Shown in pieces: positions 16,499 through 41,142 of a stretch of 64,000 nucleotides of DNA; position 1 is the stretch's first letter, and every line of letters starts with the position of its first letter. A program made the position numbers and the translations under genes. The notes beneath the pieces are model-generated. The model worked only from the letters and a program-made list of their open reading frames with translations, was not told the DNA's origin and ran no database searches. Origin of the DNA: a virus; the IMG/VR virus record IMGVR_UViG_3300032516_000004, positions 32,001 through 96,000 of that record, one strand, 5' to 3'.

Positions 16499-16819
16499 AT
16501 GAAACTTTGGGTTATTGTAGATCACATTGGACGACAGTTCTTAGGTAAAGTAACTAACGAAAATGATGATATTCTAACTATAGAAGAACCAATATTAATA
16601 ATGGAGATCATTCAACCGCCGAAGGTTGATTTACAAGTGCAGCCAATCTGTCATACATTTGATGTTCCATCTATTGAGGTTCGTTGGGTTTCAAGATTTC
16701 CTGCAAATGAAAAATTAGCCACACTATATGAAAAATTCACAGAGCAGATGCGGGCTAAGCGTGCTGGTATAGAAATCGCCTCAACAATCCCCAAGGGATT
16801 GCAGCTGGTGAGACATTGA
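16499..16819 (+). CDS. Small beta-barrel protein, possibly Sm-like (ATG 16499)
   Basis: SD AAGGAG before ATG 16499; GRQFLGKV..E.DDILTIEEPILI fits an Sm1-like strand pattern. Confidence 0.5.
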   Translation: MKLWVIVDHIGRQFLGKVTNENDDILTIEEPILIMEIIQPPKVDLQVQPICHTFDVPSIEVRWVSRFPANEKLATLYEKFTEQMRAKRAGIEIASTIPKGLQLVRH

Positions 16820-18849
16820 GCCAAGTGATTGAGACCGATGACTTTATGTCATCCATTCAATCGATTGTTTCGCCATTAACAAGTAAGGTGAGGGCTCAGG
16901 TTTATGATTCTGAATTAGAATATCTTAAGATACCTGCTCCAAATATTATCGAGTTCGTCGCTGAGCCGCAATATCTTAATATACCATCTATTTGGAAGTA
17001 TACACGCCAATATCAGGTGCTTAGAGATTTTTTCCAAGTTAGATGTCCAATTTGTAATTCACAAAAACCAGAAACAATAGACTGTTGGGGTAAAGGCAAG
17101 GAATACCTACAATCAGAAACATTATTAGTATGGTCTATTAAAGACAATGATGATGTTTGTCCAAAGTGTGGCTTGACGCGACATGAATTATTAGAAGATA
17201 AAATAGTAGATAAATATAACCAGCTTCATGGTATTACTGGGATGCGAGCTGGTAAAACTGCTACTATTGCTATGATGGGAGCATATACTGAACACCGACT
17301 AATTACTCTTGGAATGAGTCAACCAGATGGTCGTTTAGCCACATATTTTGGTTTGTTGTCCAAACAACCATATGAGGTTACATATATTGCCTCCACGGAG
17401 GTACAGTCAAATGACACTATATGGGCATATTATCGTAGCATGCGTTTTGATTCTCCTTGGCTTAGACGTTATGTTGAATGGGTTAAAGGCAAGGAAAAAA
17501 CGCAAGATACTCCAATTGGCATGGAAGGATGGAAATATCAGGAAACAAACAAAGAAATTGAAAATGGACATTTGGGAGTAAAATTTAATTCCAAGAACTC
17601 TAACTCCTCTGGTCTCGCGGGTCGTACTCGTATTGGGTCTTTTATTGATGAGCTGTCTCGATTTAAACAGACCGAATCATCAATGAGTGCTGAAGAAGCA
17701 TACCGAGTTATGGAGAATTCACTTAGAACAGTACGATCTGCTGTTATGAATCGTGGTTTATTAAATTGGCTTGGAACAATGGTATCAATTTCATCGCCAA
17801 TGTCGGTTGATGATAAAGGAATGGAGTTATTATATCAATCTACACATATTAAAGGTATGTATGCATTCCACTACGCGACCTGGGATTTTAATCCGGACGA
17901 AAAACGTGAATATTATGACGAAGCATATGAGAAGGATCCAGTAGGCACGGAACGTGACTTTGGAGCTAAGCCACCACTATCTGCTAATCCACTAGTTATT
18001 GATCCCACCAAATTTAAGTCTCGGGCCATTGATGAAACTTTGGTTCCGACCGCTAAGATAGAAATTATTCCGTTTACTGATAAAACCGGGCAACGATATC
18101 ACCGGGCACAGATGACTGAATGTAAGTTGCTTCGTGACGTACCTCGCTATTTGGTATTTGATGCTGGACAAAACTTTGACTCGTTTGCGGGTGCCTGTGG
18201 CCATATTGAAATCAAAGAGCTGCCCGATGGTAATCAAGAATTTATCACGGTAGTAGACTGGGTATTGAAAATTCTTCCATCTAATGATATGGAAGTGTGG
18301 TTTGATTCAGCGGTTGATTTGGTTGACTTTCAAATAAAACATCAGAAGATTGCTGGGGTTGAATTTGATCGCTGGAATAGTGTTACCCTAATACAACAAA
18401 TTCGTAACCTTGGGGTTAGTGCAGAACAGAAATCTATTAAAGTTCCTGACTATGTGAAGTTTGTGGCTGATAGTATAATGGGCCGGGTTCGTATGTTACC
18501 TCCCTTAGAAGAAGATGAGGCTCTAGAACCACCCTTTAAATCACCCTCGGCAACTGCTATTTATGAGTTGACTAAGCTCGAGCGATCGATTGATGACCGA
18601 AAAGTGTATAATGCCGCTAAGGGAAAGCGTAGAGGTTATAATTCGGATGACGTAGCGGTTTGCATGGTACATCTTCATGCAATGGTTCAAGGATCGCAGA
18701 TTTTACCAAGTGGTATAAAAATACGCTCACGTGCAAATCGTCTTAAAAGTGAGACCGTTGGATCTCAAAGTTACCAAATGAATAATATGGGGACAATTTT
18801 TAGCCCGACTCGTTTAGGATTAAAAACTGTTTCCGGGAGAAGATGGTAA
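16816..18849 (+). CDS. terL: Terminase large subunit
   Basis: Walker A GMRAGKT, Walker B SFIDELS, coupling motif ISISS, nuclease acids LVFDAG..FDS and NSDDVA. Confidence 0.92.
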   Translation: MSQVIETDDFMSSIQSIVSPLTSKVRAQVYDSELEYLKIPAPNIIEFVAEPQYLNIPSIWKYTRQYQVLRDFFQVRCPICNSQKPETIDCWGKGKEYLQSETLLVWSIKDNDDVCPKCGLTRHELLEDKIVDKYNQLHGITGMRAGKTATIAMMGAYTEHRLITLGMSQPDGRLATYFGLLSKQPYEVTYIASTEVQSNDTIWAYYRSMRFDSPWLRRYVEWVKGKEKTQDTPIGMEGWKYQETNKEIENGHLGVKFNSKNSNSSGLAGRTRIGSFIDELSRFKQTESSMSAEEAYRVMENSLRTVRSAVMNRGLLNWLGTMVSISSPMSVDDKGMELLYQSTHIKGMYAFHYATWDFNPDEKREYYDEAYEKDPVGTERDFGAKPPLSANPLVIDPTKFKSRAIDETLVPTAKIEIIPFTDKTGQRYHRAQMTECKLLRDVPRYLVFDAGQNFDSFAGACGHIEIKELPDGNQEFITVVDWVLKILPSNDMEVWFDSAVDLVDFQIKHQKIAGVEFDRWNSVTLIQQIRNLGVSAEQKSIKVPDYVKFVADSIMGRVRMLPPLEEDEALEPPFKSPSATAIYELTKLERSIDDRKVYNAAKGKRRGYNSDDVAVCMVHLHAMVQGSQILPSGIKIRSRANRLKSETVGSQSYQMNNMGTIFSPTRLGLKTVSGRRW

Positions 18850-19874
18850 TGCTTGCTGAGCACCCAACTAAAAAATGTACAAAATGTGGTATTAGAAACC
18901 GTCAAATTGCCAGAAGTGGTAAAGTTAAGCTATTATGTGCTATGTGTCTTAGTATAAGAAATAAAGAGTATAAAATAAGTCATCCTGAATCAGTAGCTTT
19001 CTCACAAAAAAAGAGAACTGAAAAAAAACGAGTCGCTAGAGAAATTACAATTTGTATTAGATGTAAAATAAAGCCAAGGCGATACCAAGCTGGTAATTGT
19101 AAATATTGTGAAGAATGTCATAGGGAAGTTAATATAGAAAATAAAAGACGATCAAGTCAAAAACCGGCAACGAAGGCGCATAAAAAACATTATAGAGACG
19201 TACATCGCAAACCAAAAATAGAGCATAAACCTAATTCTATGTGTAGTAAATGTAGGGTACGACCACGAGCGTCCATTAAAAAGGTATGGTGTAAAGAATG
19301 TACACATGAATATAATCAAAATTATAATAAAACACATACTGTAGAAATTAAGCTTAAACGTGCTATATCAAGAAATAGTGATAAAGTTCGAGCACAAAAA
19401 CGCGCTTGGAGCTGTACACCTAAGGGACGAGCATACATTGAGAAACGTAAAACTTTGGGAAGAGCAGCTGAATCTGATCGTAATTATCGTCAACGCCATC
19501 CGGATAAGATTCGTGCTAAAAACCGACGTTTAGCACCAAGATATAGACAAAAACCTAAACAAAAACTACGAAGAAATTTACGAAATAGATTGTGGTATGT
19601 TCTTAAAGGTGGGTTAAAGGTTGGATCTGCAGTAAGAGATCTTGGATGTTCTATTGAATTTCTTAAGCATCATCTCGAGACTCAATTCCAACCAGGCATG
19701 ACATGGGATAATTATGGTGGAACCATTAATAACTGGTGTGTTGATCACATTATACCACTTTCCAGTTTTGATTTAACTGATCGAGAACAATTTCTCAAAG
19801 CCTGTCACTATAGTAACCTTCAACCGATGTGGTTTTCCGATAATTCTAGAAAGTGTAATCGTTTGGATTATTAA
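18843..19874 (+). CDS. Free-standing HNH homing endonuclease
   Basis: Basic Cys-repeat N-terminus; C-terminal GMTWDNYG...VDHIIPLSSFDL...CHYSNLQPMW..N..K. Confidence 0.85.
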   Translation: MVMLAEHPTKKCTKCGIRNRQIARSGKVKLLCAMCLSIRNKEYKISHPESVAFSQKKRTEKKRVAREITICIRCKIKPRRYQAGNCKYCEECHREVNIENKRRSSQKPATKAHKKHYRDVHRKPKIEHKPNSMCSKCRVRPRASIKKVWCKECTHEYNQNYNKTHTVEIKLKRAISRNSDKVRAQKRAWSCTPKGRAYIEKRKTLGRAAESDRNYRQRHPDKIRAKNRRLAPRYRQKPKQKLRRNLRNRLWYVLKGGLKVGSAVRDLGCSIEFLKHHLETQFQPGMTWDNYGGTINNWCVDHIIPLSSFDLTDREQFLKACHYSNLQPMWFSDNSRKCNRLDY

Positions 19875-19876
19875 GT

Positions 19877-22282
19877 ATGAAACGAAAGCGCATAAGCTGG
19901 ATTGGTAGTGATATTAGAAAGCGTAAAGCCTTAAGCAAAGCTCTTAAGGTAGTTCTCAATACCAGCGATAAGAATTCAGACGTAAACATCGTTGATATGC
20001 CTACAGACGGCCAGGCATCGGGCTGTCATCAGTTGTCGGTTCCCGCCAAATTCCCAGCTGGTGAGGAAGATAGTAATCCCGATACCGCAATTGAGACATC
20101 ATATCATATGCCTAGACAAGCATCCGAACCTCGTAATCGATGTGGATGCTGTGGTCGTGCTGCTATTGAACAAGTAGGTTCACACCATGTATGTAATGGG
20201 GGTAAATGTTGGATTTGGGCCAAAGCCCAGCTTAATAAGACTGCCGAATTTGGTCAGGGTCTTACCCAATTAACTACCGAGCAGGAGACTGGTAAGGTCA
20301 AACAAAAACTTACCGAACCAGCTCGATGGAATGAATCTTATCACGACGATAACCAATTTGAAGACAAAGACTTAAAGCTTGGGGAATCTGAACCCGACGA
20401 CACTGATCCCTTGTCTTCCTCTGTCTATCCCCCATATACGGATGGTATTGGGCAACCAAATCCTAGATATGAGGATGCTAGCCCTAAGCAACGGAATATT
20501 ATTTTACATGCAGCCGAAGACCAAGAAGCGATTGATCCTAACCAGGGACCCCGACAATTCTGGGTCGCAGTTGACCTCGACGGCACCATCCTCGAGCCCC
20601 CGACCAATGGGATATATCAAGATCCGAGTGGCCAGCATTGCTTTGGAAACCCACTTCCTGGAGCAAGAGAAGCGCTCCAAAAATTAGTGGATCAGGGGAT
20701 TAGGATATCAATATATACTGCCCGACAATATTTTACCCACAATGATGCGGAAGAGAATGTCTTGAGGGATGCCGTTAAAGAAGTTCTGGACCAACACCAA
20801 ATTCACTATTCTGATATATATATGGGCAAGAAATTACCAGCTCATTGCTATGTAGATGATCGCAATATATCGTTTGATGGTGACTGGGAAGATGCACTAG
20901 AAAATATCTTGAGTAGAATGGATAAGGTGGCGTCAGGTGAGATCACGATTGATGATATTGAACTAATCTATGAATATTATTACAAGATTTCTAGGTTAGA
21001 AGACAAGAAAGTAGAAGAAGGTCTTAGTGAAGAAGGTGCCGCTAACATCAGGGAAATATCCGTCGTATTGTCTAAACTTCTTAAATTAGCGATAGACTTC
21101 ATGAAGAACAAGGTATATATTCCTTGGATGAAGTCAACCTCAGCCCCTGATCAAACCGCGATTCCTGCGGTTAATGCGGCGCGTCATCAGGTCGCGGCAA
21201 CCCTTAGAGAGTTAACGCCAACTGGAAATGTACATCGAGACATGGCAATTTTTAGTCAGGCGTTAAACACCGCACATTCGAGTGGATCGATGATGGATTT
21301 TTTGAGTCACTGGTACAATATCAATCCCGAAATGTTATCAGCGCTCACCAGTGGTGAAGGATATACGGATCGATGGGATCGTGATATCAAAAGAATCGCT
21401 GGTGAAGATTTCGGAATTCACGATATTGAAATGATCTATGAGATGTTTTATAAAATATCTAAATTAGAGGATCAACAAACTGAAAAGGGTATATCAGAAC
21501 GTGGTGCCGCGACATTAACTGAAATGAAGTCAATACTGAGCCAACTATTACGTAAAGCCATTGTGTTTTTGCGAGACGGGGTTTATGGTCGATGGCTCGA
21601 GACCCGTGGTCGAGAAGCCACAGATCGTTTAGTGGTCGATAGAATCCAGACAGTAGCCAAAACGCTGGTTCCATCAGGCGATATTAATCGGGACATTATA
21701 TTATTTGGTAATGCCCTGAATGTAGTACACCAAACTGGCCCTATGGTAGAATTCGTGGAACGATGGTATAGAATTAGTGCCCTGGCACTTGAGGGCCTAT
21801 CACTTGGCCGTGGATACACTGATAGGTGGGATCGAGAAATTAAGCGTATAGCTGAAGACGACAAGGTTAAGGATCAGGTAAATTATCGGGGAATTAAGAT
21901 CGATATTGAGTGGCCCAAGGGTTCTATCCGGTCATATGAAGGCGACGACACTTATGTAACGCACATGCTAGCTTCATATGGTTACATCCGGAATGTACAA
22001 GGTGTTGATTCTGATAGCCTTGACGTATATCTTGGTGATAAAGATTCTGATAAGGTTTTTATTGTTGAACAGTTGGATGCTGATGGAAATTTTGATGAAC
22101 AAAAACTAATGATTGGATTTGATTCAGAAGAGGAAGCAGCAGGCATGTATTTAGAGCATCTTCCAGCTTACATGCTCGGGGACATAAGTGAAATTCCATT
22201 AGATAAATTAGTAAATGCTCTATATGGTGAACCAGAGGATCGTAGAGGAGATTTAGATCTGGTCCCATCGGAGGAGCAATGA
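19877..22282 (+). CDS. Polyvalent protein, part A: Zn ribbon, HAD phosphatase, two ~150-aa repeats, InPase (inorganic pyrophosphatase-like) domain
   Basis: AVDLDGT...YTAR...GKK..A..YVDD (HAD); IDIEWPKGSIR...YGYIR...GVDSDSLDVYLG...DEQKLMIGFDSEEEA (InPase). Confidence 0.8.
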   Translation: MKRKRISWIGSDIRKRKALSKALKVVLNTSDKNSDVNIVDMPTDGQASGCHQLSVPAKFPAGEEDSNPDTAIETSYHMPRQASEPRNRCGCCGRAAIEQVGSHHVCNGGKCWIWAKAQLNKTAEFGQGLTQLTTEQETGKVKQKLTEPARWNESYHDDNQFEDKDLKLGESEPDDTDPLSSSVYPPYTDGIGQPNPRYEDASPKQRNIILHAAEDQEAIDPNQGPRQFWVAVDLDGTILEPPTNGIYQDPSGQHCFGNPLPGAREALQKLVDQGIRISIYTARQYFTHNDAEENVLRDAVKEVLDQHQIHYSDIYMGKKLPAHCYVDDRNISFDGDWEDALENILSRMDKVASGEITIDDIELIYEYYYKISRLEDKKVEEGLSEEGAANIREISVVLSKLLKLAIDFMKNKVYIPWMKSTSAPDQTAIPAVNAARHQVAATLRELTPTGNVHRDMAIFSQALNTAHSSGSMMDFLSHWYNINPEMLSALTSGEGYTDRWDRDIKRIAGEDFGIHDIEMIYEMFYKISKLEDQQTEKGISERGAATLTEMKSILSQLLRKAIVFLRDGVYGRWLETRGREATDRLVVDRIQTVAKTLVPSGDINRDIILFGNALNVVHQTGPMVEFVERWYRISALALEGLSLGRGYTDRWDREIKRIAEDDKVKDQVNYRGIKIDIEWPKGSIRSYEGDDTYVTHMLASYGYIRNVQGVDSDSLDVYLGDKDSDKVFIVEQLDADGNFDEQKLMIGFDSEEEAAGMYLEHLPAYMLGDISEIPLDKLVNALYGEPEDRRGDLDLVPSEEQ
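20936..21853 (+). repeat. Tandem protein-level repeat, 155 aa + 151 aa
   Basis: Units 20936-21400 and 21401-21853 both begin near I.DIE.IYE..YKIS.LED and end GYTDRWDR(D/E)IKRIA. Confidence 0.9.
22220..22276 (+). repeat. Recoded direct repeat copy 1 (LYGEPEDRRGDLDLVPSEE)
   Basis: 16 of 19 aa identical to 23150-23206; same frame, 930 nt apart. Confidence 0.9.
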
Positions 22283-23079
22283 AACGCTATAAATGTACTA
22301 AATGCAATAAGTATAAAATAAGAAGCGCCTATGGTACCAGACGTGGTACTAGTAAATCCATGCGTAGGAAAGTATGTAAGGTTTGTATACAAAAACGTAA
22401 GAAAGAATTACTAAAGGACCCGATTCGACATCAGAAGCATTGTCAATCGCAACATAAGTACTATATAAGCCATAAGGAAAAGATAAACGCAAAACACAAT
22501 CAATACCACGAAGATCATGCTGAAGAGGTGTGCACTAGAACTAAAAGAAATTATAATAAAAATAAAGCTAGACGTAAAATTACGTCTGCTGCTAAATATT
22601 TACGCAACAAAAAACATATTTTATTAAAACAAAGAGAATGGGCTTTAAAAAATCCTGATAAGCGAAATGCGTCGTCCCGCAGATGGAGAGCTAAACATCC
22701 TGAAAAGGCTAAAGCCACACATGAAGCGTGGTTTAAAAAACACCTCGGTAAACGTCGTGAATATGATCGTAAGAAGCGTATTCAACGTTCAAGTATGAAA
22801 ATACATGTTAATGAAAATTTCACAGCTGAAGATGAGGCGGTTGTATTTAAAGTATTCAAATATCGTTGTTTCCATTGTGGGACTACTAAACATTTAACGT
22901 TAGATCATTTTTACCCGTTATCTAAAGGACACCCACTAGAATTGGGAAATGCCATAATTTTATGTCGATCTTGTAATGCGTCTAAACACAATAAAGATCC
23001 GGGAGAATTTTTTGCTAAATTTGAAATGAAATCGGTCCGTAAATTAATGACTAAAACATTGAGGTTAGCACATGCATAA
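22279..23079 (+). CDS. Free-standing HNH endonuclease inserted in the polyvalent gene
   Basis: CFHCGTTKHLTLDHFYPLSKG...NAIILCRSCNASKHNK; overlaps both neighbours (4 and 8 nt). Confidence 0.88.
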   Translation: MKRYKCTKCNKYKIRSAYGTRRGTSKSMRRKVCKVCIQKRKKELLKDPIRHQKHCQSQHKYYISHKEKINAKHNQYHEDHAEEVCTRTKRNYNKNKARRKITSAAKYLRNKKHILLKQREWALKNPDKRNASSRRWRAKHPEKAKATHEAWFKKHLGKRREYDRKKRIQRSSMKIHVNENFTAEDEAVVFKVFKYRCFHCGTTKHLTLDHFYPLSKGHPLELGNAIILCRSCNASKHNKDPGEFFAKFEMKSVRKLMTKTLRLAHA

Positions 23080-24865
23080 AATTATCATACCATGTGGGGG
23101 CATATATTATGTAGGAGGAGCACACATCAATAACCCTAAATTTAAAGTGCTACATGGAGAGCCCGAGGATCGACGGGGCGAAGAAGACTTAGTGCCGTCA
23201 GAAGAAATATCAAAACAAGCATTTAATCTTGATCGAGCAATCCATTGTCTACGAATCCGTAAATCAGAACCAGGTGAAGATATTGAACTTACTGATAAAG
23301 AATGGTTATACAAATCTGCTGGTCTGAGGTATATGGCCGGTAAAACCCCTGGTGAAAAGGTTGGATTATTTATCTTACTTCCTAAAGAATTGGCTAAGCA
23401 ATATCCACCAGAGGGTAAAGCTGGTGAAGACGATTCAGACCCACACGTTACATTATTATATGTAGGAGATGTTCCCAACAATAAATTTGACGATCTTGAA
23501 CAGATCGTTAGAGAAGAACTTACTAGAATGGGGCCTTTTGAAGTTGAATTGTTGCCACCCGACACATTTGTTAATGATGAAGATCAAACCATCTTACACA
23601 GTCCAGTAAAAGGTGACATTCTTGAACCACTTAGCGGCATTATTAAAGAACGATTAATAGATGAAGGATTTGAGTTTAAACATCCTGATAGACCATTTAA
23701 AGGCCATGTAACGATTGAATATGTTGATCCTGGCGAAGAGCCACAATTTTCAGATGTAATGCCCATGGGTTCATGGCTAGTAAATGAAATAGAAATTTGG
23801 GGGCTCGGTGATCCACGAATTATTAAACTAGATGATTCGGGCGACGAACAGCTAGAAAAGAAAGTTGCTGAACAATTTAATAAATGGTCGCAGATCCATA
23901 GACTACCAGATGGTTCGGGGTTTTTCACTGGTTTGGTGGGTGGTGACAAGAAGTCAGACGTTTTTGATCCTCGAATAAACCGGAAAACAAAATCAGATTA
24001 CGTGGGACCTCAGTCTCGACAGGTTGGTGATATTGGGGGTGTAGCGGCTGATACGTCAGATAATTATTATGAAGACGAAACTGGTAAGTATGAAGTATCT
24101 AAATTGATTGAATCATCAGATAATCTACCAATTGTATCAGTAAATGTCCAAAGTGTTGCTGAGCACCCAGACAATAAACAAGGTATCGATGAATTATTGT
24201 CAACACTCGTAAATGACCAACAAGAATTACAACGAACTCAAAATGTGGACTTGTCAGCTCCAATATTGATTAAATCAGATCATATCATCGTGGATGGGTT
24301 CCATCGTGTTGTGCGGGCTATTTTAGATAAGCAATTTACAATACCCGCCAAGATTGTTACACCAGAAATTTTAAGTCAATCCAAGATTGCTCAAAAGAAT
24401 CCTAATTATTTGTTTGTCTATGGTGCCTTGCGCCGAGGTGAGCCATACTATGAGAAATTTCTAGCCGACAGTAAATTTGTCAAGACAGTAAAAACCCAGC
24501 CTAAGTATCATTTGGTGATTACCCAAGCGGCTGGTATGGTACCGGGTGAGAGTGCCGTGGAAGGTGAATTATACGAGGTCCCGGATCACGTGATGGCAGA
24601 GATCGACCAATACGAACATCCCTACTATCGTCAAGAAATTGAATTGGACGACGGCACCAAAGCCAACGCTTACTTTGTCCCTGAAGAAGTCGCTGATATC
24701 GTGGAGGAGGCTCCTAGAATGTCTGAGGGTAGTGATGTCGAATCATCGGTGTTTCCTGGTGCTCAAGATAATGAGAATCTACGGACCGATCCCGTGGAAA
24801 CAGATCAAAACCGAGACATCTTGAGAGAGCATGACACAGAACGTGCCAAATACCGAAATGTGTAG
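23072..24865 (+). CDS. Polyvalent protein, part B: 2H phosphoesterase, ParB/Srx-like, gamma-glutamylcyclotransferase (AIG2-like) domains
   Basis: PHVTLLY and GHVTIEY (2H); PILI...IVDGFHRV (ParB); LFVYGALRRG...VEGELYEV...IDQYE (GGCT). Confidence 0.85.
   Translation: MHKIIIPCGGIYYVGGAHINNPKFKVLHGEPEDRRGEEDLVPSEEISKQAFNLDRAIHCLRIRKSEPGEDIELTDKEWLYKSAGLRYMAGKTPGEKVGLFILLPKELAKQYPPEGKAGEDDSDPHVTLLYVGDVPNNKFDDLEQIVREELTRMGPFEVELLPPDTFVNDEDQTILHSPVKGDILEPLSGIIKERLIDEGFEFKHPDRPFKGHVTIEYVDPGEEPQFSDVMPMGSWLVNEIEIWGLGDPRIIKLDDSGDEQLEKKVAEQFNKWSQIHRLPDGSGFFTGLVGGDKKSDVFDPRINRKTKSDYVGPQSRQVGDIGGVAADTSDNYYEDETGKYEVSKLIESSDNLPIVSVNVQSVAEHPDNKQGIDELLSTLVNDQQELQRTQNVDLSAPILIKSDHIIVDGFHRVVRAILDKQFTIPAKIVTPEILSQSKIAQKNPNYLFVYGALRRGEPYYEKFLADSKFVKTVKTQPKYHLVITQAAGMVPGESAVEGELYEVPDHVMAEIDQYEHPYYRQEIELDDGTKANAYFVPEEVADIVEEAPRMSEGSDVESSVFPGAQDNENLRTDPVETDQNRDILREHDTERAKYRNV
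23150..23206 (+). repeat. Recoded direct repeat copy 2 (LHGEPEDRRGEEDLVPSEE)
   Basis: Matches 22220-22276 at protein level; 13 of 16 identical residues use different codons. Confidence 0.9.
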
Positions 24866-24919: not shown

Positions 24920-27900
24920 ATGACAAGTTTAATCCGGGGTAGTATGTATGGGGATCCTAGAGTCCAGGCATCTCGCGAACTACCCCATGGTATGACTCCT
25001 GATTCTATCGAACAACTAGCCTCGAGATTCGAAAATTTCGTGCCCGGTATTTCCAGCTCACAAGGCACAGCATCAAAACAATTCTTTGAAGGTTTGCTGC
25101 CTGAGGGCGCAGAACTGTCACCCAGAACACATCGGCAGGCACAATTCAATATACCGGGTGGCGGCGCATTGAGTAACTTTATTGGTGGAGGGGTTGGGGG
25201 TGGTGGTGGTACCATGGTGACCCCACAACAACCCTACCAGCCAGAGTTCAGCGATCCCTCGAGACAAGCCTATCCCATCCATCGAATTTTGGCTAATCGT
25301 TACTGGCGTTTATTCTATAAGTTAGATCCAACTATTGGCAATTGTGTCGATCTCATGGCCACAATGCCATGGTCAGATTGCCAATTAACAGGTGAAGGGG
25401 TTACCGGTGAAATTAAAGAAGCCTACGAGGAAATGTGGAAAGAGTGTGAGATACTAAAAATTCTTGAATATATGGTTAAGGAATTCTTAGTGGTCGGTGA
25501 AGTGTGTAACCATTGCTTCTTCGATGATTCAAAGGGCATCTGGACCTATGTGGCGCTTCATAATCCTGATCAGCTAGAAGTAATCGATGCCCCATTCATA
25601 AAAATGCAACCGGTAATCGAGTTTATTCCTGACGATCGATTACGAGCAGTTCTTACCTCCAATAATCATCTGTTGCGTCGTATTAGAGAGCAAATGCCTG
25701 CCGAGCTGATCGCTCGTCTAATTGCACGACAAAATATACCGCTTAGCCCTATTAATGCTACTTTTATTCCTCGTCGTTTACATCCCTATGATACTCGTGG
25801 CACCAGCATTATCAGTAGAATGTGGCGGATACTGATGTATGAGGATAGCCAACCACCTGGAACCCCAATTACCAGACCAGATGGCACAAATACACCAATT
25901 GAACAAATATCTATTAATGATCTAATTGTTGGTAAAAACGGTGACATACAAAAAATAACTCATATCTCTGAAAAATACTCAGAAGAACTTATGGAAATTA
26001 AAATTCATGGTGGTTGGACAATTAACTGTACCAAGAGCCATAAATGGCCAATATTCAAAAAGGATAGCTATCGTAGTGGTTCTATAAAAACGCTTGCTTC
26101 AAATATACAGATTGGTGACTATTTATCAATACCTCGACAATTTGTTAAATCTAAGTTAGATAAAAATTCTACTAGTTCCATGGCCAGATTATTGGGTTAT
26201 TATGTGGCCGAGGGATCTAGAACTAATATATCTAGTCAATATAAAGGAAAGACCTATAAATATCACCATGGATTATCCTGGGCTCTATCATTAGATGAAA
26301 AGAACACCTTAGCTAAAGATATTCTTGAAATATGCACTAAAATAAATTGTAGTCCAAAATTTTATGTTGGGAAGTCAAATTTAAGTAGAAATGGCTGTGC
26401 AATACACACTCACAAAAAAGCAGACATCTGGTTAGCTGATTGGATGTTTAGTAATGGAGGTGAACACGCGGCTACAAAACAGCTCTCTCAAATGGTAATG
26501 GGGTGGCCTCTAAAACTTAAACAAGAATTTATTCGTGGTTATTTTAGAGGCGATGGATCATATAATCTATTGTGTAAGCCTAAAACAAAAATAACACAAA
26601 GACGTACAGTTCAAAGCACTGTAAAAGCAGCAACCGTATCATCTGCTCTGGCGTATCAAATACAACTAATCCTTGCCCAATTGGGAATTTTTGCTAAGAT
26701 TAGGGTCTATCAACCACCCAACAATGATGGAAGAAATAGACGAAAAATTAATTATATAGAATGTACTGGTCGTCATGGTGATAAGCTAGCGTCGGTTGTT
26801 TGGGGTAAAGTTAGAGAACGATCTGTTATGGATCACAGATCGCAATCACGTGTTGTTGTAACTAAGACACACATATTGTTACCAATCACCAAGGTGGCCA
26901 TCGAAAAATATGATGGATTAGTCTATAGTCTTGAAACATCTGGTGATCACTCATATTTAAATGCAAATGTCGCAACATATAATTCGATTTATAATGCATC
27001 TATTCAAACGGCTAGAAGACAGAGTAGTCCCTTGAAGATCGCTAAACTAGGAAATCCGCAAACAGGCTGGATTCCCAGCCCTGAACATGAACAACGTCTA
27101 CTACGTTTGTTAGCTCAGGCTGAAATGGATCCTGCGGCATGGATCACGTACCATTACGGGATCCAATTTGAGTTGGTTGGTGTTCAAGAACGAGTAATGA
27201 ACATCAGCCAACACAATGAAGTGATTGAACGGATTAAGTTAGTTGCACTCGGAATTAGTAAAGCGTTCCTATCGGGCGAGGTCACGTATAGCTCGGCCTA
27301 CACGGGTCTTTCAGTTTTCTTGCAACGCATGAAGGCGATGCGTAATTTCTTTGTTAATAGTTGGGTGATCCCCAAGTTCTTTACTCCAATTGCGAAGATG
27401 AACGGTTGGGTGAAGAGTGACAAGGGTGAACTGAACCATCGGTACCGAATTAAGAGATCCCAGCGAGAGATTGAACAACAAAATCGGTACATAATCCCAC
27501 ATATTGAATGGGAAAAACAACTTGACCAGACCATTAATAGTGATTTGGTAAATGCCATGACCTCACTCGAGGGTCTAGGGATCAAGTTCTCCAAGACCAC
27601 CAAGTATGCGGCGGTGAATAAGAAGTTTGAGGAAGAGGTTCGGAAGATCAAGGAAGAGCAAAAATTCGAAATGGAGCTAGCCCCATATATTGCGCCTAGT
27701 CAAGTGGCGGGTGGACCTGGTGCACCCGGTGGTGCTCCACCAATGCCTACTGGAGGAGGGCCACCGGCCCCAATGGGTGGTGAGCCTGAACCAGGCGCTG
27801 GGGCATTACCTCCAGGAGCCATGGGTCCAGGTGCTGAAGCGTCGTCTGATAAAGCGGGGGCAGGTGGTGGTACGGGTCCTTCAGGTAAGAAGGATCCAGC

Positions 27901-28402
27901 AGTTCGTGATATGGAATCCAGTATCTGGGATCGTAAAGGTAGGTCCGGGAATTGGTCGGCGTCAGAAATTCATGAGCTTGATCAGTTGATCCGCGAGGGA
28001 CATACTGACTCACCATTGTGGGGTGATATGGATGGTCCAGCATTTAGAAAGGCTGTGAATTCCCAGGACGCTTGGCAAGTCCTTGAGGTTATTGAAGATC
28101 ACTTGACTGACCATGGATATCCGGCAGATGACATCCGACAACTACGTAGAATTCTCGATGAAGAGGGGGTTCTAAAGGACATATCGACTGGTGATGTAGA
28201 AGTATTAAAGTCTGTTGAACGGAAAATGGATGATAGTGGTACATTAAACGATCAAGATGCCATGGAACGACTATCAGCACAAATAGATGGTGAAAAGACT
28301 GGCACAGTAGAAATGGGAAATCCAGAGTTACTCTACGTTGGTCATGGAAATCAAGATATTGGGTCCTGGAGCGGGGATATTAGTGATAAGATTCCTAGAT
28401 AA
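24920..28402 (+). CDS. Portal protein precursor containing an intein
   Basis: Downstream of terL; extein motifs RYWRLFYKLDPTIGNCVDL, GEV..H, YDTRGTSIISRMWR, AETRR-like ASIQTARR..PLKIAKLG, P.IEWEK typical of large-phage portals; Gly/Pro-rich C-terminal tail. Confidence 0.8.
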   Translation: MTSLIRGSMYGDPRVQASRELPHGMTPDSIEQLASRFENFVPGISSSQGTASKQFFEGLLPEGAELSPRTHRQAQFNIPGGGALSNFIGGGVGGGGGTMVTPQQPYQPEFSDPSRQAYPIHRILANRYWRLFYKLDPTIGNCVDLMATMPWSDCQLTGEGVTGEIKEAYEEMWKECEILKILEYMVKEFLVVGEVCNHCFFDDSKGIWTYVALHNPDQLEVIDAPFIKMQPVIEFIPDDRLRAVLTSNNHLLRRIREQMPAELIARLIARQNIPLSPINATFIPRRLHPYDTRGTSIISRMWRILMYEDSQPPGTPITRPDGTNTPIEQISINDLIVGKNGDIQKITHISEKYSEELMEIKIHGGWTINCTKSHKWPIFKKDSYRSGSIKTLASNIQIGDYLSIPRQFVKSKLDKNSTSSMARLLGYYVAEGSRTNISSQYKGKTYKYHHGLSWALSLDEKNTLAKDILEICTKINCSPKFYVGKSNLSRNGCAIHTHKKADIWLADWMFSNGGEHAATKQLSQMVMGWPLKLKQEFIRGYFRGDGSYNLLCKPKTKITQRRTVQSTVKAATVSSALAYQIQLILAQLGIFAKIRVYQPPNNDGRNRRKINYIECTGRHGDKLASVVWGKVRERSVMDHRSQSRVVVTKTHILLPITKVAIEKYDGLVYSLETSGDHSYLNANVATYNSIYNASIQTARRQSSPLKIAKLGNPQTGWIPSPEHEQRLLRLLAQAEMDPAAWITYHYGIQFELVGVQERVMNISQHNEVIERIKLVALGISKAFLSGEVTYSSAYTGLSVFLQRMKAMRNFFVNSWVIPKFFTPIAKMNGWVKSDKGELNHRYRIKRSQREIEQQNRYIIPHIEWEKQLDQTINSDLVNAMTSLEGLGIKFSKTTKYAAVNKKFEEEVRKIKEEQKFEMELAPYIAPSQVAGGPGAPGGAPPMPTGGGPPAPMGGEPEPGAGALPPGAMGPGAEASSDKAGAGGGTGPSGKKDPAVRDMESSIWDRKGRSGNWSASEIHELDQLIREGHTDSPLWGDMDGPAFRKAVNSQDAWQVLEVIEDHLTDHGYPADDIRQLRRILDEEGVLKDISTGDVEVLKSVERKMDDSGTLNDQDAMERLSAQIDGEKTGTVEMGNPELLYVGHGNQDIGSWSGDISDKIPR
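25847..26983 (+). mobile_element. Intein with LAGLIDADG homing endonuclease (379 aa)
   Basis: Block A SQPPGTPITRPDG...IEQI..NDLIV, block B CTKSHKW, blocks C/E LLGYYVAEGS and FIRGYFRGDGS, block F/G VYSLETSGDHSY...ATYN|S. Confidence 0.9.
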
Positions 28403-40269: not shown

Positions 40270-41142
40270 ATGTTATTGGAAGATACCATCGTTATTGGAA
40301 AGACCTGTAGTAAATGTGGGATTTATAAACCATATTCGGAATTTCATAAAAATACTAGAACCAAAGATGGATGTGTAATTTATTGTAAAGAATGCAATAA
40401 AGAACATAGTAGAACATGGTACCACGCAAACCCAGAAAAACGTAATAACCGGGCTACACGGCTTGCTGGTAAATATGAAGGTATAACGAATAAAATTTGT
40501 GCCAAATGTAATAAGTTAAAGCCATTTTCAGAATTCTATAAATCATCTAATAATGCTAGTGGACATAAGCCAACATGTAAGGCGTGTGTTTGTGTGGAAG
40601 AAACTAAAAGAGCTAGCAATCGCACGTTGTCCATTACACATAAAATCTGTAGTACCTGCGGTATTGATAAACCGGTAACTGATTTTGTGAAGGACAAATA
40701 TAAGAGTGATGGATATCATCAAGAATGTAGAGCATGTAAAGCGATTTACAAAAAAGAGTACTATAAAAAGAATAGAGAATGGCTAATTAAACAAGGCGCA
40801 CAAAGATTACACACCAGCATTCAGTCACGATTATCACATTTATTGCGCACTAGAATTACCGGCCTTGTTAGAAGCGGTACAAAAGCAGGATCTGCGGTTC
40901 GTGATCTGGGTTGCTCAATTATTTTCTTGAAAGAATACCTTGAGCAAAAATTTTATAATCATCCAACGACTAATGAGCCAATGACTTGGAAGAACCGTGG
41001 GCAGTATGGTTGGCATGTTGATCATATTAAGCCATTGGTTCAATTTGATCTTACTAATCGTGAACAGTTTTTACAGGCTTGCCACTACACCAACTTGCAA
41101 CCTTTATGGTGCATGGATAATTTACGTAAAGGAGCGCTCTAA
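40270..41142 (+). CDS. Free-standing HNH homing endonuclease (paralog of 18843-19874)
   Basis: Three K.CxxC...KP.SEF...CKxC repeats; GSAVRDLGCSI.FLK...MTW.N.G...WHVDHIKPL...CHYTNLQPLW. Confidence 0.85.
   Translation: MLLEDTIVIGKTCSKCGIYKPYSEFHKNTRTKDGCVIYCKECNKEHSRTWYHANPEKRNNRATRLAGKYEGITNKICAKCNKLKPFSEFYKSSNNASGHKPTCKACVCVEETKRASNRTLSITHKICSTCGIDKPVTDFVKDKYKSDGYHQECRACKAIYKKEYYKKNREWLIKQGAQRLHTSIQSRLSHLLRTRITGLVRSGTKAGSAVRDLGCSIIFLKEYLEQKFYNHPTTNEPMTWKNRGQYGWHVDHIKPLVQFDLTNREQFLQACHYTNLQPLWCMDNLRKGAL

Follow-up and report, generated by a model that had tools for sequence, protein, structure and literature searches.

Organisation of the split locus

The window examined here is a 64,000-nt stretch of phage DNA (positions 32,001 to 96,000 of the IMG/VR virus record IMGVR_UViG_3300032516_000004) that forms part of a 177,941-bp genome, complete according to CheckV. 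It carries a gene for a large multi-domain protein that is interrupted by a free-standing HNH endonuclease gene, and a 19-residue peptide, hereafter the junction peptide, is found on both sides of the interruption. Inspection of coordinates and translations showed that three + strand open reading frames (ORFs), designated ORF A, the HNH ORF and ORF B, abut one another at this site. The features of the locus are as follows:

19877..22282, + strand: ORF A, 801 aa, predicted N-terminal half of a polyvalent virion protein (Pfam, PHROG)
21869..22216, + strand: InPase domain (type I pyrophosphatase-like, OB fold), ORF A residues 665-780, PF18823, E=3e-30
22220..22276, + strand: copy A of the junction peptide, the acidic native tail of the InPase module
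22270..22282, + strand: 5' junction, S-E-E codons TCG GAG GAG (which contain GGAGGAG), then CAA TGA
22279..23079, + strand: HNH ORF, 266 aa, a free-standing and intact endonuclease gene
23061..23079, + strand: 3' junction, GAGG Shine-Dalgarno sequence 7 nt upstream of the ORF B ATG (23072)
23072..24865, + strand: ORF B, 597 aa, predicted C-terminal half of the polyvalent protein
23072..23149, + strand: restart leader, 26 aa, basic (isoelectric point, pI, 9.5), kept in a second split phage (L038/P0007) and in protein P0037
23150..23206, + strand: copy B of the junction peptide, 19 codons, inside ORF B

ORF A ends in ..KLVNA-LYGEPEDRRGDLDLVPSEE-Q-stop, in which LYGEPEDRRGDLDLVPSEE is copy A, and ORF B starts with the 26 residues of the leader (MHKIIIP...NNPKFKV), followed by LHGEPEDRRGEEDLVPSEE, which is copy B. 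The two copies lie 930 nt apart in the same frame and are identical at 16 of 19 residues and 38 of 57 nt, with different codons at 13 of the 16 shared residues. A first-pass annotation made from the letters of this stretch had pointed out the duplication, and its coordinates, frames and counts proved exact. Local alignment of the tail of A with the head of B gave a score of 85 (shuffles: 25 ± 4.6), and no further occurrence of the peptide was detected in the six frames of the window. Removal of 930 nt, as envisaged in the same annotation, would join 781 and 571 residues into a protein of 1352 aa with the architecture seen in the fused relatives described below.

At the 5' junction, ORF A extends one residue (Q) beyond the peptide and its stop codon overlaps the ATG of the HNH ORF at 22279 (ATGA), with GGAGGAG as a Shine-Dalgarno-like sequence for the HNH ORF. 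At the 3' junction, the start of ORF B overlaps the HNH stop codon (ATGCATAA). Based on the ATGA and ATGCATAA overlaps and the Shine-Dalgarno sequences, the three ORFs are predicted to be translationally coupled; ORFs A and B each have a Shine-Dalgarno sequence and a start codon of their own. Because the HNH ORF overlaps both the stop of A and the start of B, there is no non-coding space between the two halves. The HNH gene thus fills the gap and leaves no room for an intron, as had been proposed at first sight, and a permissive Rfam search gave no relevant match. Promoter and terminator scans returned background levels only.

The gene is undivided in relatives

Searches of protein and contig collections revealed at least 15 relatives in which the gene is fused and the peptide is present once (P0004; L003, L021, L028, L030, L034 and L036; P0005, P0010, P0044, P0104 and P0141; P0006, P0155 and P0159). 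In these fused ORFs the InPase domain is directly followed by one ALYG.PEDRRG..D..P.EE motif and then by a lysine-rich linker and other domains. An eight-sequence alignment of relatives showed this motif to be as invariant as the catalytic core. What lies downstream differs among the fused proteins and may be a 2H domain, a DUF-like GGLADE module, a Cys-rich module or only KTKSDYVGPQ..GGIGG; since these domains vary from one relative to another, the peptide belongs to the InPase module.

The split gene itself is predicted to encode a phage "polyvalent" virion protein with HAD, InPase, 2H and GGACT domains. Specifically, ORF A comprises a HAD/NT5C-like phosphatase region, two internal repeats of ~150 aa and the InPase domain, and its N-terminus and domain order agree with those of the fused P0104, P0010 and P0004. 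In ORF B, copy B is followed by a P0104-like helical segment (23207-23311), a 2H phosphoesterase (about 23384-23797), a phrog_17560-matching region, a GGACT gamma-glutamyl cyclotransferase (about 24410-24685) and a C-terminal tail (24785-24862). Several unrelated effector or enzyme domains in one product, encoded among head genes, is what defines a polyvalent protein, and both were found here by Pfam and PHROG matching. The order of large terminase gene (terL), polyvalent gene and portal gene was kept in all relatives, as judged from tblastn synteny.

None of the six fused loci for which DNA was available has an endonuclease homologue near the gene. The presence of the endonuclease is polymorphic at one fixed site, with at least 15 fused alleles and two loci occupied exactly after ..SEE. 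The claim that the HNH gene splits what is otherwise a single, one-copy gene was thus borne out; relatives devoid of the HNH gene and bearing two peptide-carrying genes, the arrangement that would have spoken against it, were looked for, and the opposite was found.

No close cultured phage relative was recovered by blastn or tblastn, which returned only distant InPase and 2H domain matches. The junction peptide was absent from the InPase ends of distant phage proteins, including RCIP0363 and JSF39, and the ALYGEPEDRRG..D..P.EE tail appears to be specific to this clade. Prophage or bacterial copies were also considered; all eight pattern matches in the genome contig collection were chance matches.

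A second split phage and a conserved restart leader

A search with the leader and peptide patterns identified the same split arrangement in the metagenomic contig SDBV01000812.1 (L038). Its upstream ORF ends in ..ALYGQPEDRRGQEDLIPSEE-Q-stop and is followed by an endonuclease ORF, and the ending GAR GAR CAA TRA is common to this ORF and ORF A. The ATG of its downstream ORF, which encodes P0007, overlaps the endonuclease stop codon in ATGCGTAA, the counterpart of the window's ATGCATAA, with AGGA as the Shine-Dalgarno sequence ahead of it and a 6-nt spacer between the two. P0007 opens with MRKIIIPSSGHYYSSGVHINNPKFVVLD and continues with LYGEPEDRRGQEDQVPEEE. The split locus is real and no artefact, being present in two independent assemblies. 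The same leader and peptide were also found at the start of P0037 (191 aa, from a 2.4-kb JGI contig), where they precede a different cargo resembling that of the fused P0104 and P0006.

The leader is 26-28 aa long, occurs in split forms only and is absent from all fused relatives. It had no Pfam or PHROG match and no other occurrence in IMG/VR. With the combined leader and peptide patterns, L038 was the sole match in the metagenome collection and IMG/VR gave none, and no further split loci were obtained when a viral contig collection was queried with the HNH, B, P0004 and P0037 sequences. Derivation of the leader from a decayed InPase C-terminus was considered: MAFFT aligned the two, but the InPase hidden Markov model scores were negative and profile alignment against shuffled leaders (p = 0.47, 0.07 and 0.43) left such an origin unsupported. 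Five endonuclease sites were examined in the window phage and L038, and a flanking duplication was present at two of them, both of them the split sites. The first-pass annotation had missed the conserved leader of 26 aa, the existence of another split phage and the evidence of mobility given below.

The second phage also bears on whether the two halves are rejoined by a self-splicing intron, a split intein (a 'fractured gene') or ribosomal bypass, with the peptide marking the joint. In the window the copies do lie in the same frame, the neighbouring portal gene has a genuine intein, and endonuclease-associated split inteins are known (PMC2677866). In L038, however, 853 nt separate the copies, and the two halves lie in different frames. 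Group I and group II introns were rejected, given that the permissive Rfam search was negative and the HNH ORF occupies all of the gap. A split intein was likewise rejected: no Hint or intein Pfam match was found in A, B or the leader, and the junction has neither a Cys/Ser+1 residue nor a terminal HN-C/S/T motif. Together with the separate Shine-Dalgarno sequences and ATG codons of the two halves, these results make the RNA- or ribosome-level rejoining that had been raised earlier scarcely credible.

Mosaic phylogeny of the junction patch

In order to place the split genes among the fused ones, trees were built from the domains on either side of the junction. The InPase tree was based on the 130 residues upstream of the peptide, with the peptide itself excluded, and recovered the window phage and L038 as sisters (support 98/95), while grouping of L038 with P0010 was rejected (p=0.006). 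The flanking domains gave a different picture. In the HAD tree the window phage grouped with the fused P0104 and L038 with the fused P0010, and the pairing of the two split phages was rejected (approximately unbiased test, p=0.002). In the 2H tree the window phage grouped with the fused L003 (98/97) and L038 with the fused P0010 (93/93), and the pairing was again rejected (p=0.001). By sliding-window identity, the tract shared by the window phage and L038 opens near residue 690 of A and closes with copy B, directly after which the window switches to the P0104-like segment.

Only the central patch, made of the InPase end, copy A, the endonuclease, the leader and copy B, thus links the two split phages. 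As this patch is shared and its flanks are nearest to those of unsplit genes, it has spread by recombination, as expected of homing with co-conversion; the local change in phylogeny around the insertion that co-conversion would leave is what was observed. Two independent exchanges of both flanks would give the same pattern and are a less parsimonious alternative to transfer of the patch.

These trees also speak to the order of events. The two-gene state could be ancestral, with the motif on two neighbouring genes, an endonuclease landing between them and the fused genes arising by deletion. The family tree is unrooted, and recombination between the copies would indeed yield a fused gene with a single copy. 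Against such a history, at least 15 fused forms are scattered across the whole tree as against one split clade on the InPase tree, the flanking domains of the split phages nest among fused genes, the leader is confined to split forms, and the search for relatives with two peptide-bearing genes and no endonuclease was negative. We consider an ancestral two-gene state to be quite improbable.

Selection and codon divergence

Comparison of the window phage with L038 gave non-synonymous divergence (dN) values of 0.24 for the leader, 0.12 for copy B and 0.15 for copy A, alongside 0.21 for InPase and 0.33 for 2H. Synonymous sites were saturated throughout, the proportion of synonymous differences (pS) ranging from 0.57 to 0.96 and amounting to 0.72 for the leader. 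The leader and both copies of the peptide are under purifying selection at the protein level, at least as strong as that acting on the enzyme domains. Since saturation is also observed within the genome, recent gene conversion is ruled out as the cause of the similarity between the copies.

The first-pass annotation had proposed that both copies are under selection while their DNA has been recoded. Its first part was confirmed by the dN values of the two copies at saturated synonymous sites; active recoding was not. Differing codons at 13 of 16 residues compare with 9.6 expected from the codon usage of the window (Poisson-binomial, P(>=13)=0.056), which is not significantly above saturation. 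Copies from different phages diverge to the same extent, with different codons at 4-12 of 14-18 shared residues, and the two copies of L038 share 9 of 15 codons, more than chance. Part of the codon difference is moreover mundane, as the end of copy A (TCG GAG GAG) doubles as the Shine-Dalgarno-like sequence. Ordinary saturation accounts for the way the copies differ in DNA. In-register stretches of identity between the window copies reach 8 nt at most, so recombinational loss of the endonuclease is unlikely whatever the cause of the divergence; the suggested hindrance to loss of the HNH gene holds in this sense, though as a side effect. Pairwise identities among the 57-mers are all 35-49/57 and, with the 57 nt saturated, carry no signal of a foreign donor for either copy.

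Rather than a protein signal, the duplication might be something that endonuclease mobility leaves behind, or uses at the DNA level. Copy B, a repeat of the only sequence conserved at the junction, would then be a right-hand homology arm, the downstream domains differing between alleles, or a leftover of hybrid-forming recombination, and would be translated only since the new start codon lies upstream of it. Several observations fit such an origin: the module of leader and copy precedes three different downstream cargos, and in the window the L038-like tract stops right after copy B, where the P0104-like segment begins. Copies within a genome are as diverged as copies between genomes, which would suit import from a distant donor, and fungal mitochondrial endonuclease ORFs have duplicated host-gene ends with a conserved peptide and about 64-81% nt identity (PMC3630166). 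The constraint on copy B and the leader (dN 0.12 and 0.24 at saturated pS), equal to that on enzyme domains, is on the other hand difficult to reconcile with a role in DNA only. The leader has no counterpart in the target alleles, so homology cannot explain its conservation, and a stretch of 57 bases that is 60-85% identical, in which no identical run exceeds 9 nt, is poorly suited to recombination. In the fungal cases, furthermore, there is usually one unexpressed relic copy, whereas here both copies lie in intact ORFs. We regard a purely DNA-level origin as unlikely, yet with a chance that deserves to be taken seriously.

The endonucleases

In the product of the HNH ORF, a CxxC zinc finger at the N-terminus and a set of basic repeats accompany a C-terminal HNH domain that contains CxxC...CxxC. 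The HNH domain scored 30.4 bits against PF01844 (cut-off 21.4), with further matches to phrog_1035/2214, and its motif is intact (CFHC...DH...N...CRSC..KH). The GC content of the ORF is 0.32-0.38, compared with 0.40-0.45 in the flanks. The ORF is embedded in neither an intron nor an intein, there being no Rfam match and no Hint domain, and it abuts both of its neighbours.

The split-site endonuclease of L038 shows ~31% identity to the window HNH protein in the N-terminal region only. Its nuclease domain is 49% identical to that of another window endonuclease, encoded at 18843-19874, and over its full length it is 37% identical to the product of the window ORF at 40270-41142.

These additional endonuclease genes were recorded as side observations. 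The ORF at 18843-19874 (343 aa, phrog_1035 'endonuclease VII' type, GC about 0.32-0.39) occupies the space between terL and ORF A, with an overlap at the stop codon of terL; in the fused L003 and L034, terL abuts the polyvalent gene directly. The third endonuclease ORF of the window, at 40270-41142 (290 aa, phrog_1035, E=7e-39), lies between two unannotated ORFs of the structural region and its flanks are free of any duplicated peptide. In the region 3866-5371 of L038, a canonical HNH gene, the closest to the window HNH gene (27% identical), comes after the downstream half; next to it stands an FMN-reductase-like gene, which the window lacks at this position.

The position of the HNH gene within the terL-portal module could alternatively mean that it encodes a terminase-associated packaging nuclease rather than a selfish element. 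HNH proteins that assist terminases are known, as in HK97-like phages. Relatives with the same terL-polyvalent-portal module have no HNH gene there, however, and the window has three such endonuclease ORFs at scattered sites, including 40270-41142. The low GC content of the ORF also argues against a packaging role, as do the large size of the protein and its zinc finger and repeats, which are typical of mobile endonucleases of the phrog_1035 type. This function is accordingly rated as very improbable.

Predicted structure and proposed origin of the split

AlphaFold2 (AF2) models of the two halves showed confidently folded InPase and 2H domains, with the InPase fold ending in the helix ..PLDKLVNAL. 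Copy A had a predicted local distance difference test score (pLDDT) below 50, and residues 1-81 of B, which include the leader and copy B, were unstructured (pLDDT <50). The acidic peptide has a pI of about 4.1-4.4, the basic leader one of 9.5-10.5. On these models, the peptide has the look of a short linear motif that is conserved and set in a flexible linker.

Overall, we propose that a selfish HNH endonuclease gene probably split a polyvalent gene into two, that ORF B restarts with a leader and a second, constrained copy of the peptide, and that the resulting patch moved between phage lineages. The insertion would have turned one gene into two translationally coupled genes within the terL-polyvalent-portal module. 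The upstream half keeps its native acidic tail and stops one codon later (Q-stop), and the downstream half restarts at the ATG overlapping the HNH stop with the leader, the second copy of the tail and then the continuation of the fused protein. The peptide may be a disordered docking or processing signal for incorporation into, or maturation of, the head, such that the severed halves each need a copy. Alternatively, the basic leader and the acidic tails may re-associate the halves, like the tails that rescue the mobE-split NrdA of phage Aeh1. A peptide signal required by each of the two halves had been listed in the first-pass annotation as an alternative, and is the reading we infer and favour here.

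A number of points weigh against this proposal. The activity and putative target of the HNH protein, and the production and packaging of A and B, are predictions, and the candidate function of the peptide is deduced from its conservation, its charge and the disorder predicted for it; shallow alignments of 6-8 sequences underlie the AF2 models. The split sample consists of two loci with DNA and one further protein, and the dN/dS values come from one pairwise comparison, that of the window phage with L038. On the InPase tree, grouping of the window phage with P0104 was only borderline rejected (p=0.059). The endonucleases at the two split sites are non-orthologous, a canonical HNH enzyme in the window and an EndoVII-like enzyme of the phrog_1035 type in L038; the feature in common is thus the split junction rather than the endonuclease, and replacement of the endonuclease must be invoked. 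Lastly, conservation of the copy B peptide could stem from selection on DNA homology to target alleles at non-synonymous positions instead of from a function in the protein.

The proposed split may be taken one step further. The endonuclease could conceivably travel as a 'split-and-restart' cassette that, besides its own gene, brings along a stop codon, a new ribosome site with a start codon, the basic leader and one spare peptide copy, an idea that we hold to be speculative and on balance doubtful. If it were true, the spare copy would act both as a right-hand homology arm into alleles with other downstream domains and as a docking, processing or packaging signal for the severed half. This would amount to a third general way, beside introns and inteins, for a homing endonuclease to inhabit a coding sequence without damage to it, and the peptide would be a transferable tag with which cargo could be loaded into phage heads.

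Neighbouring genes and further features of the polyvalent gene

The genes that frame the module in the window were assigned as follows:

16816..18849, + strand: large terminase gene terL, phrog_17415, E=1e-56
24920..28402, + strand: portal protein gene with a LAGLIDADG intein, phrog_16240, PF14528, PF14890

The terL ORF has a TTG start and matches just positions 401-801 of the 940-position PHROG profile. Its alignment begins at residue 138 for L003 and at residues 7-9 for L021 and L034, and the start and N-terminal region as annotated are provisional. The LAGLIDADG intein of the window portal protein lies at about residues 310-688 and is present in L003, while the portals of L028, L030 and L036 are without an intein. 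A matching intein segment (37% identical) is found in the L038 portal between residues 110 and 111, which is another insertion point.

Between the HAD and InPase regions of ORF A, two tandem repeats of ~150 aa are encoded at 20942-21853. Unit 1 runs from ..DIELIYEYYYKISRLED.. to YTDRWDRDIKRIA and unit 2 from ..DIEMIYEMFYKISKLED.. to YTDRWDREIKRIA. One unit of this type is present in L038, P0155 and P0104, and none in P0010 and P0004. In ORF B, positions 23984-24040 encode a short motif, KTKSDYVGPQ.SQVG.IGG, that is family-wide, and the C-terminal tail at 24785-24862 (D..ET..NRDI.R....E..KYRN) ends B and every fused protein. The KTKSDYVGPQ motif and this tail are candidate processing or head-targeting signals, which after the split are kept by B only. 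No prohead protease was identified; neighbouring ORFs gave no PHROG matches.

Relation to known systems

The closest parallel studied by experiment is provided by Aeromonas phage Aeh1, in which mobE splits nrdA (nrdA-a / mobE / nrdA-b); a further case is T4 gp39 / mobA / gp60 (PMC3045599). In Aeh1, tails derived from the mobE insertion on NrdA-a and on NrdA-b bear opposite charges and are essential for activity, and the authors predicted similar tails on other fragmented genes (PMC3045599). As in Aeh1, a phage gene is broken up by a free-standing HNH-family endonuclease gene into two genes that are translated separately, with junction tails that came with the insertion and that unsplit homologues lack; the present locus has a basic leader and acidic peptide tails, all of them under purifying selection. 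Unlike in Aeh1, the downstream tail includes a second native copy of the peptide while the upstream half gains a single residue (Q), and the split falls in a disordered linker between independent domains, not within one enzyme fold. The present case also differs in involving at least 2-3 lineages with different endonucleases and a junction patch that has moved between backbones, and in being known from sequence alone.

Mobile endonuclease ORFs with duplicated gene ends have been described in fungal mitochondria (Allomyces atp6; Glomus atp6, atp9, cox2 and nad3), where the duplications were attributed to transfer of the endonuclease along with a piece of the donor gene (PMC3630166). The locus in the window resembles these ORFs in that the endonuclease lies between two copies of a host segment whose peptide is conserved and whose DNA is strongly diverged. 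In the fungal genes the C-terminus is duplicated and one copy is typically a displaced relic, whereas here the gene is cut mid-way and both copies are intact and constrained.

The succession of gene half, endonuclease gene and gene half is also that of the 'fractured genes', in which split inteins flank a free-standing endonuclease gene (PMC2677866). Intein halves are absent here, and where the splicing domains would be there is a native peptide in duplicate. As for the host gene, Iyer, Burroughs, Anand, de Souza and Aravind (2017) included InPase and 2H among phage-type domains and argued that polyvalent proteins are packaged in the virion (PMC5512222). The combination of InPase and 2H, plus HAD-like and GGACT domains, in a multi-domain protein encoded beside head genes conforms to their description. 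Homing is unmentioned in that work (PMC5512222), and neither endonuclease-split versions nor the ALYGEPEDRRG..D..P.EE tail are described there.

The assignment of the locus to the known class of endonuclease-fragmented phage genes is well supported, both in its structural and in its evolutionary claims. What is new here is the duplicated and constrained junction peptide, the conserved restart leader, a polyvalent gene as the host and the phylogenetic evidence for movement of the junction as a unit.

Significance

To our knowledge, only a handful of phages are on record with a gene that a homing endonuclease has fragmented, and the way in which function is retained is understood just for the NrdA of Aeh1. 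The locus described here adds a comparative record in which a split junction, with its leader and duplicated peptide, has been inherited and exchanged as a unit between different alleles, in which different endonucleases can occupy the same junction, and in which selection maintains the duplicated peptide on each of the two products. For annotators, two-ORF loci of this kind would represent one functional gene. The finding raises the question of what role a disordered and strongly conserved 19-residue motif plays in virion-delivered multi-enzyme proteins, for which docking, proteolytic maturation and re-association are the candidates. If the motif is a head-targeting or processing signal, it may be usable for loading foreign cargo into capsids.

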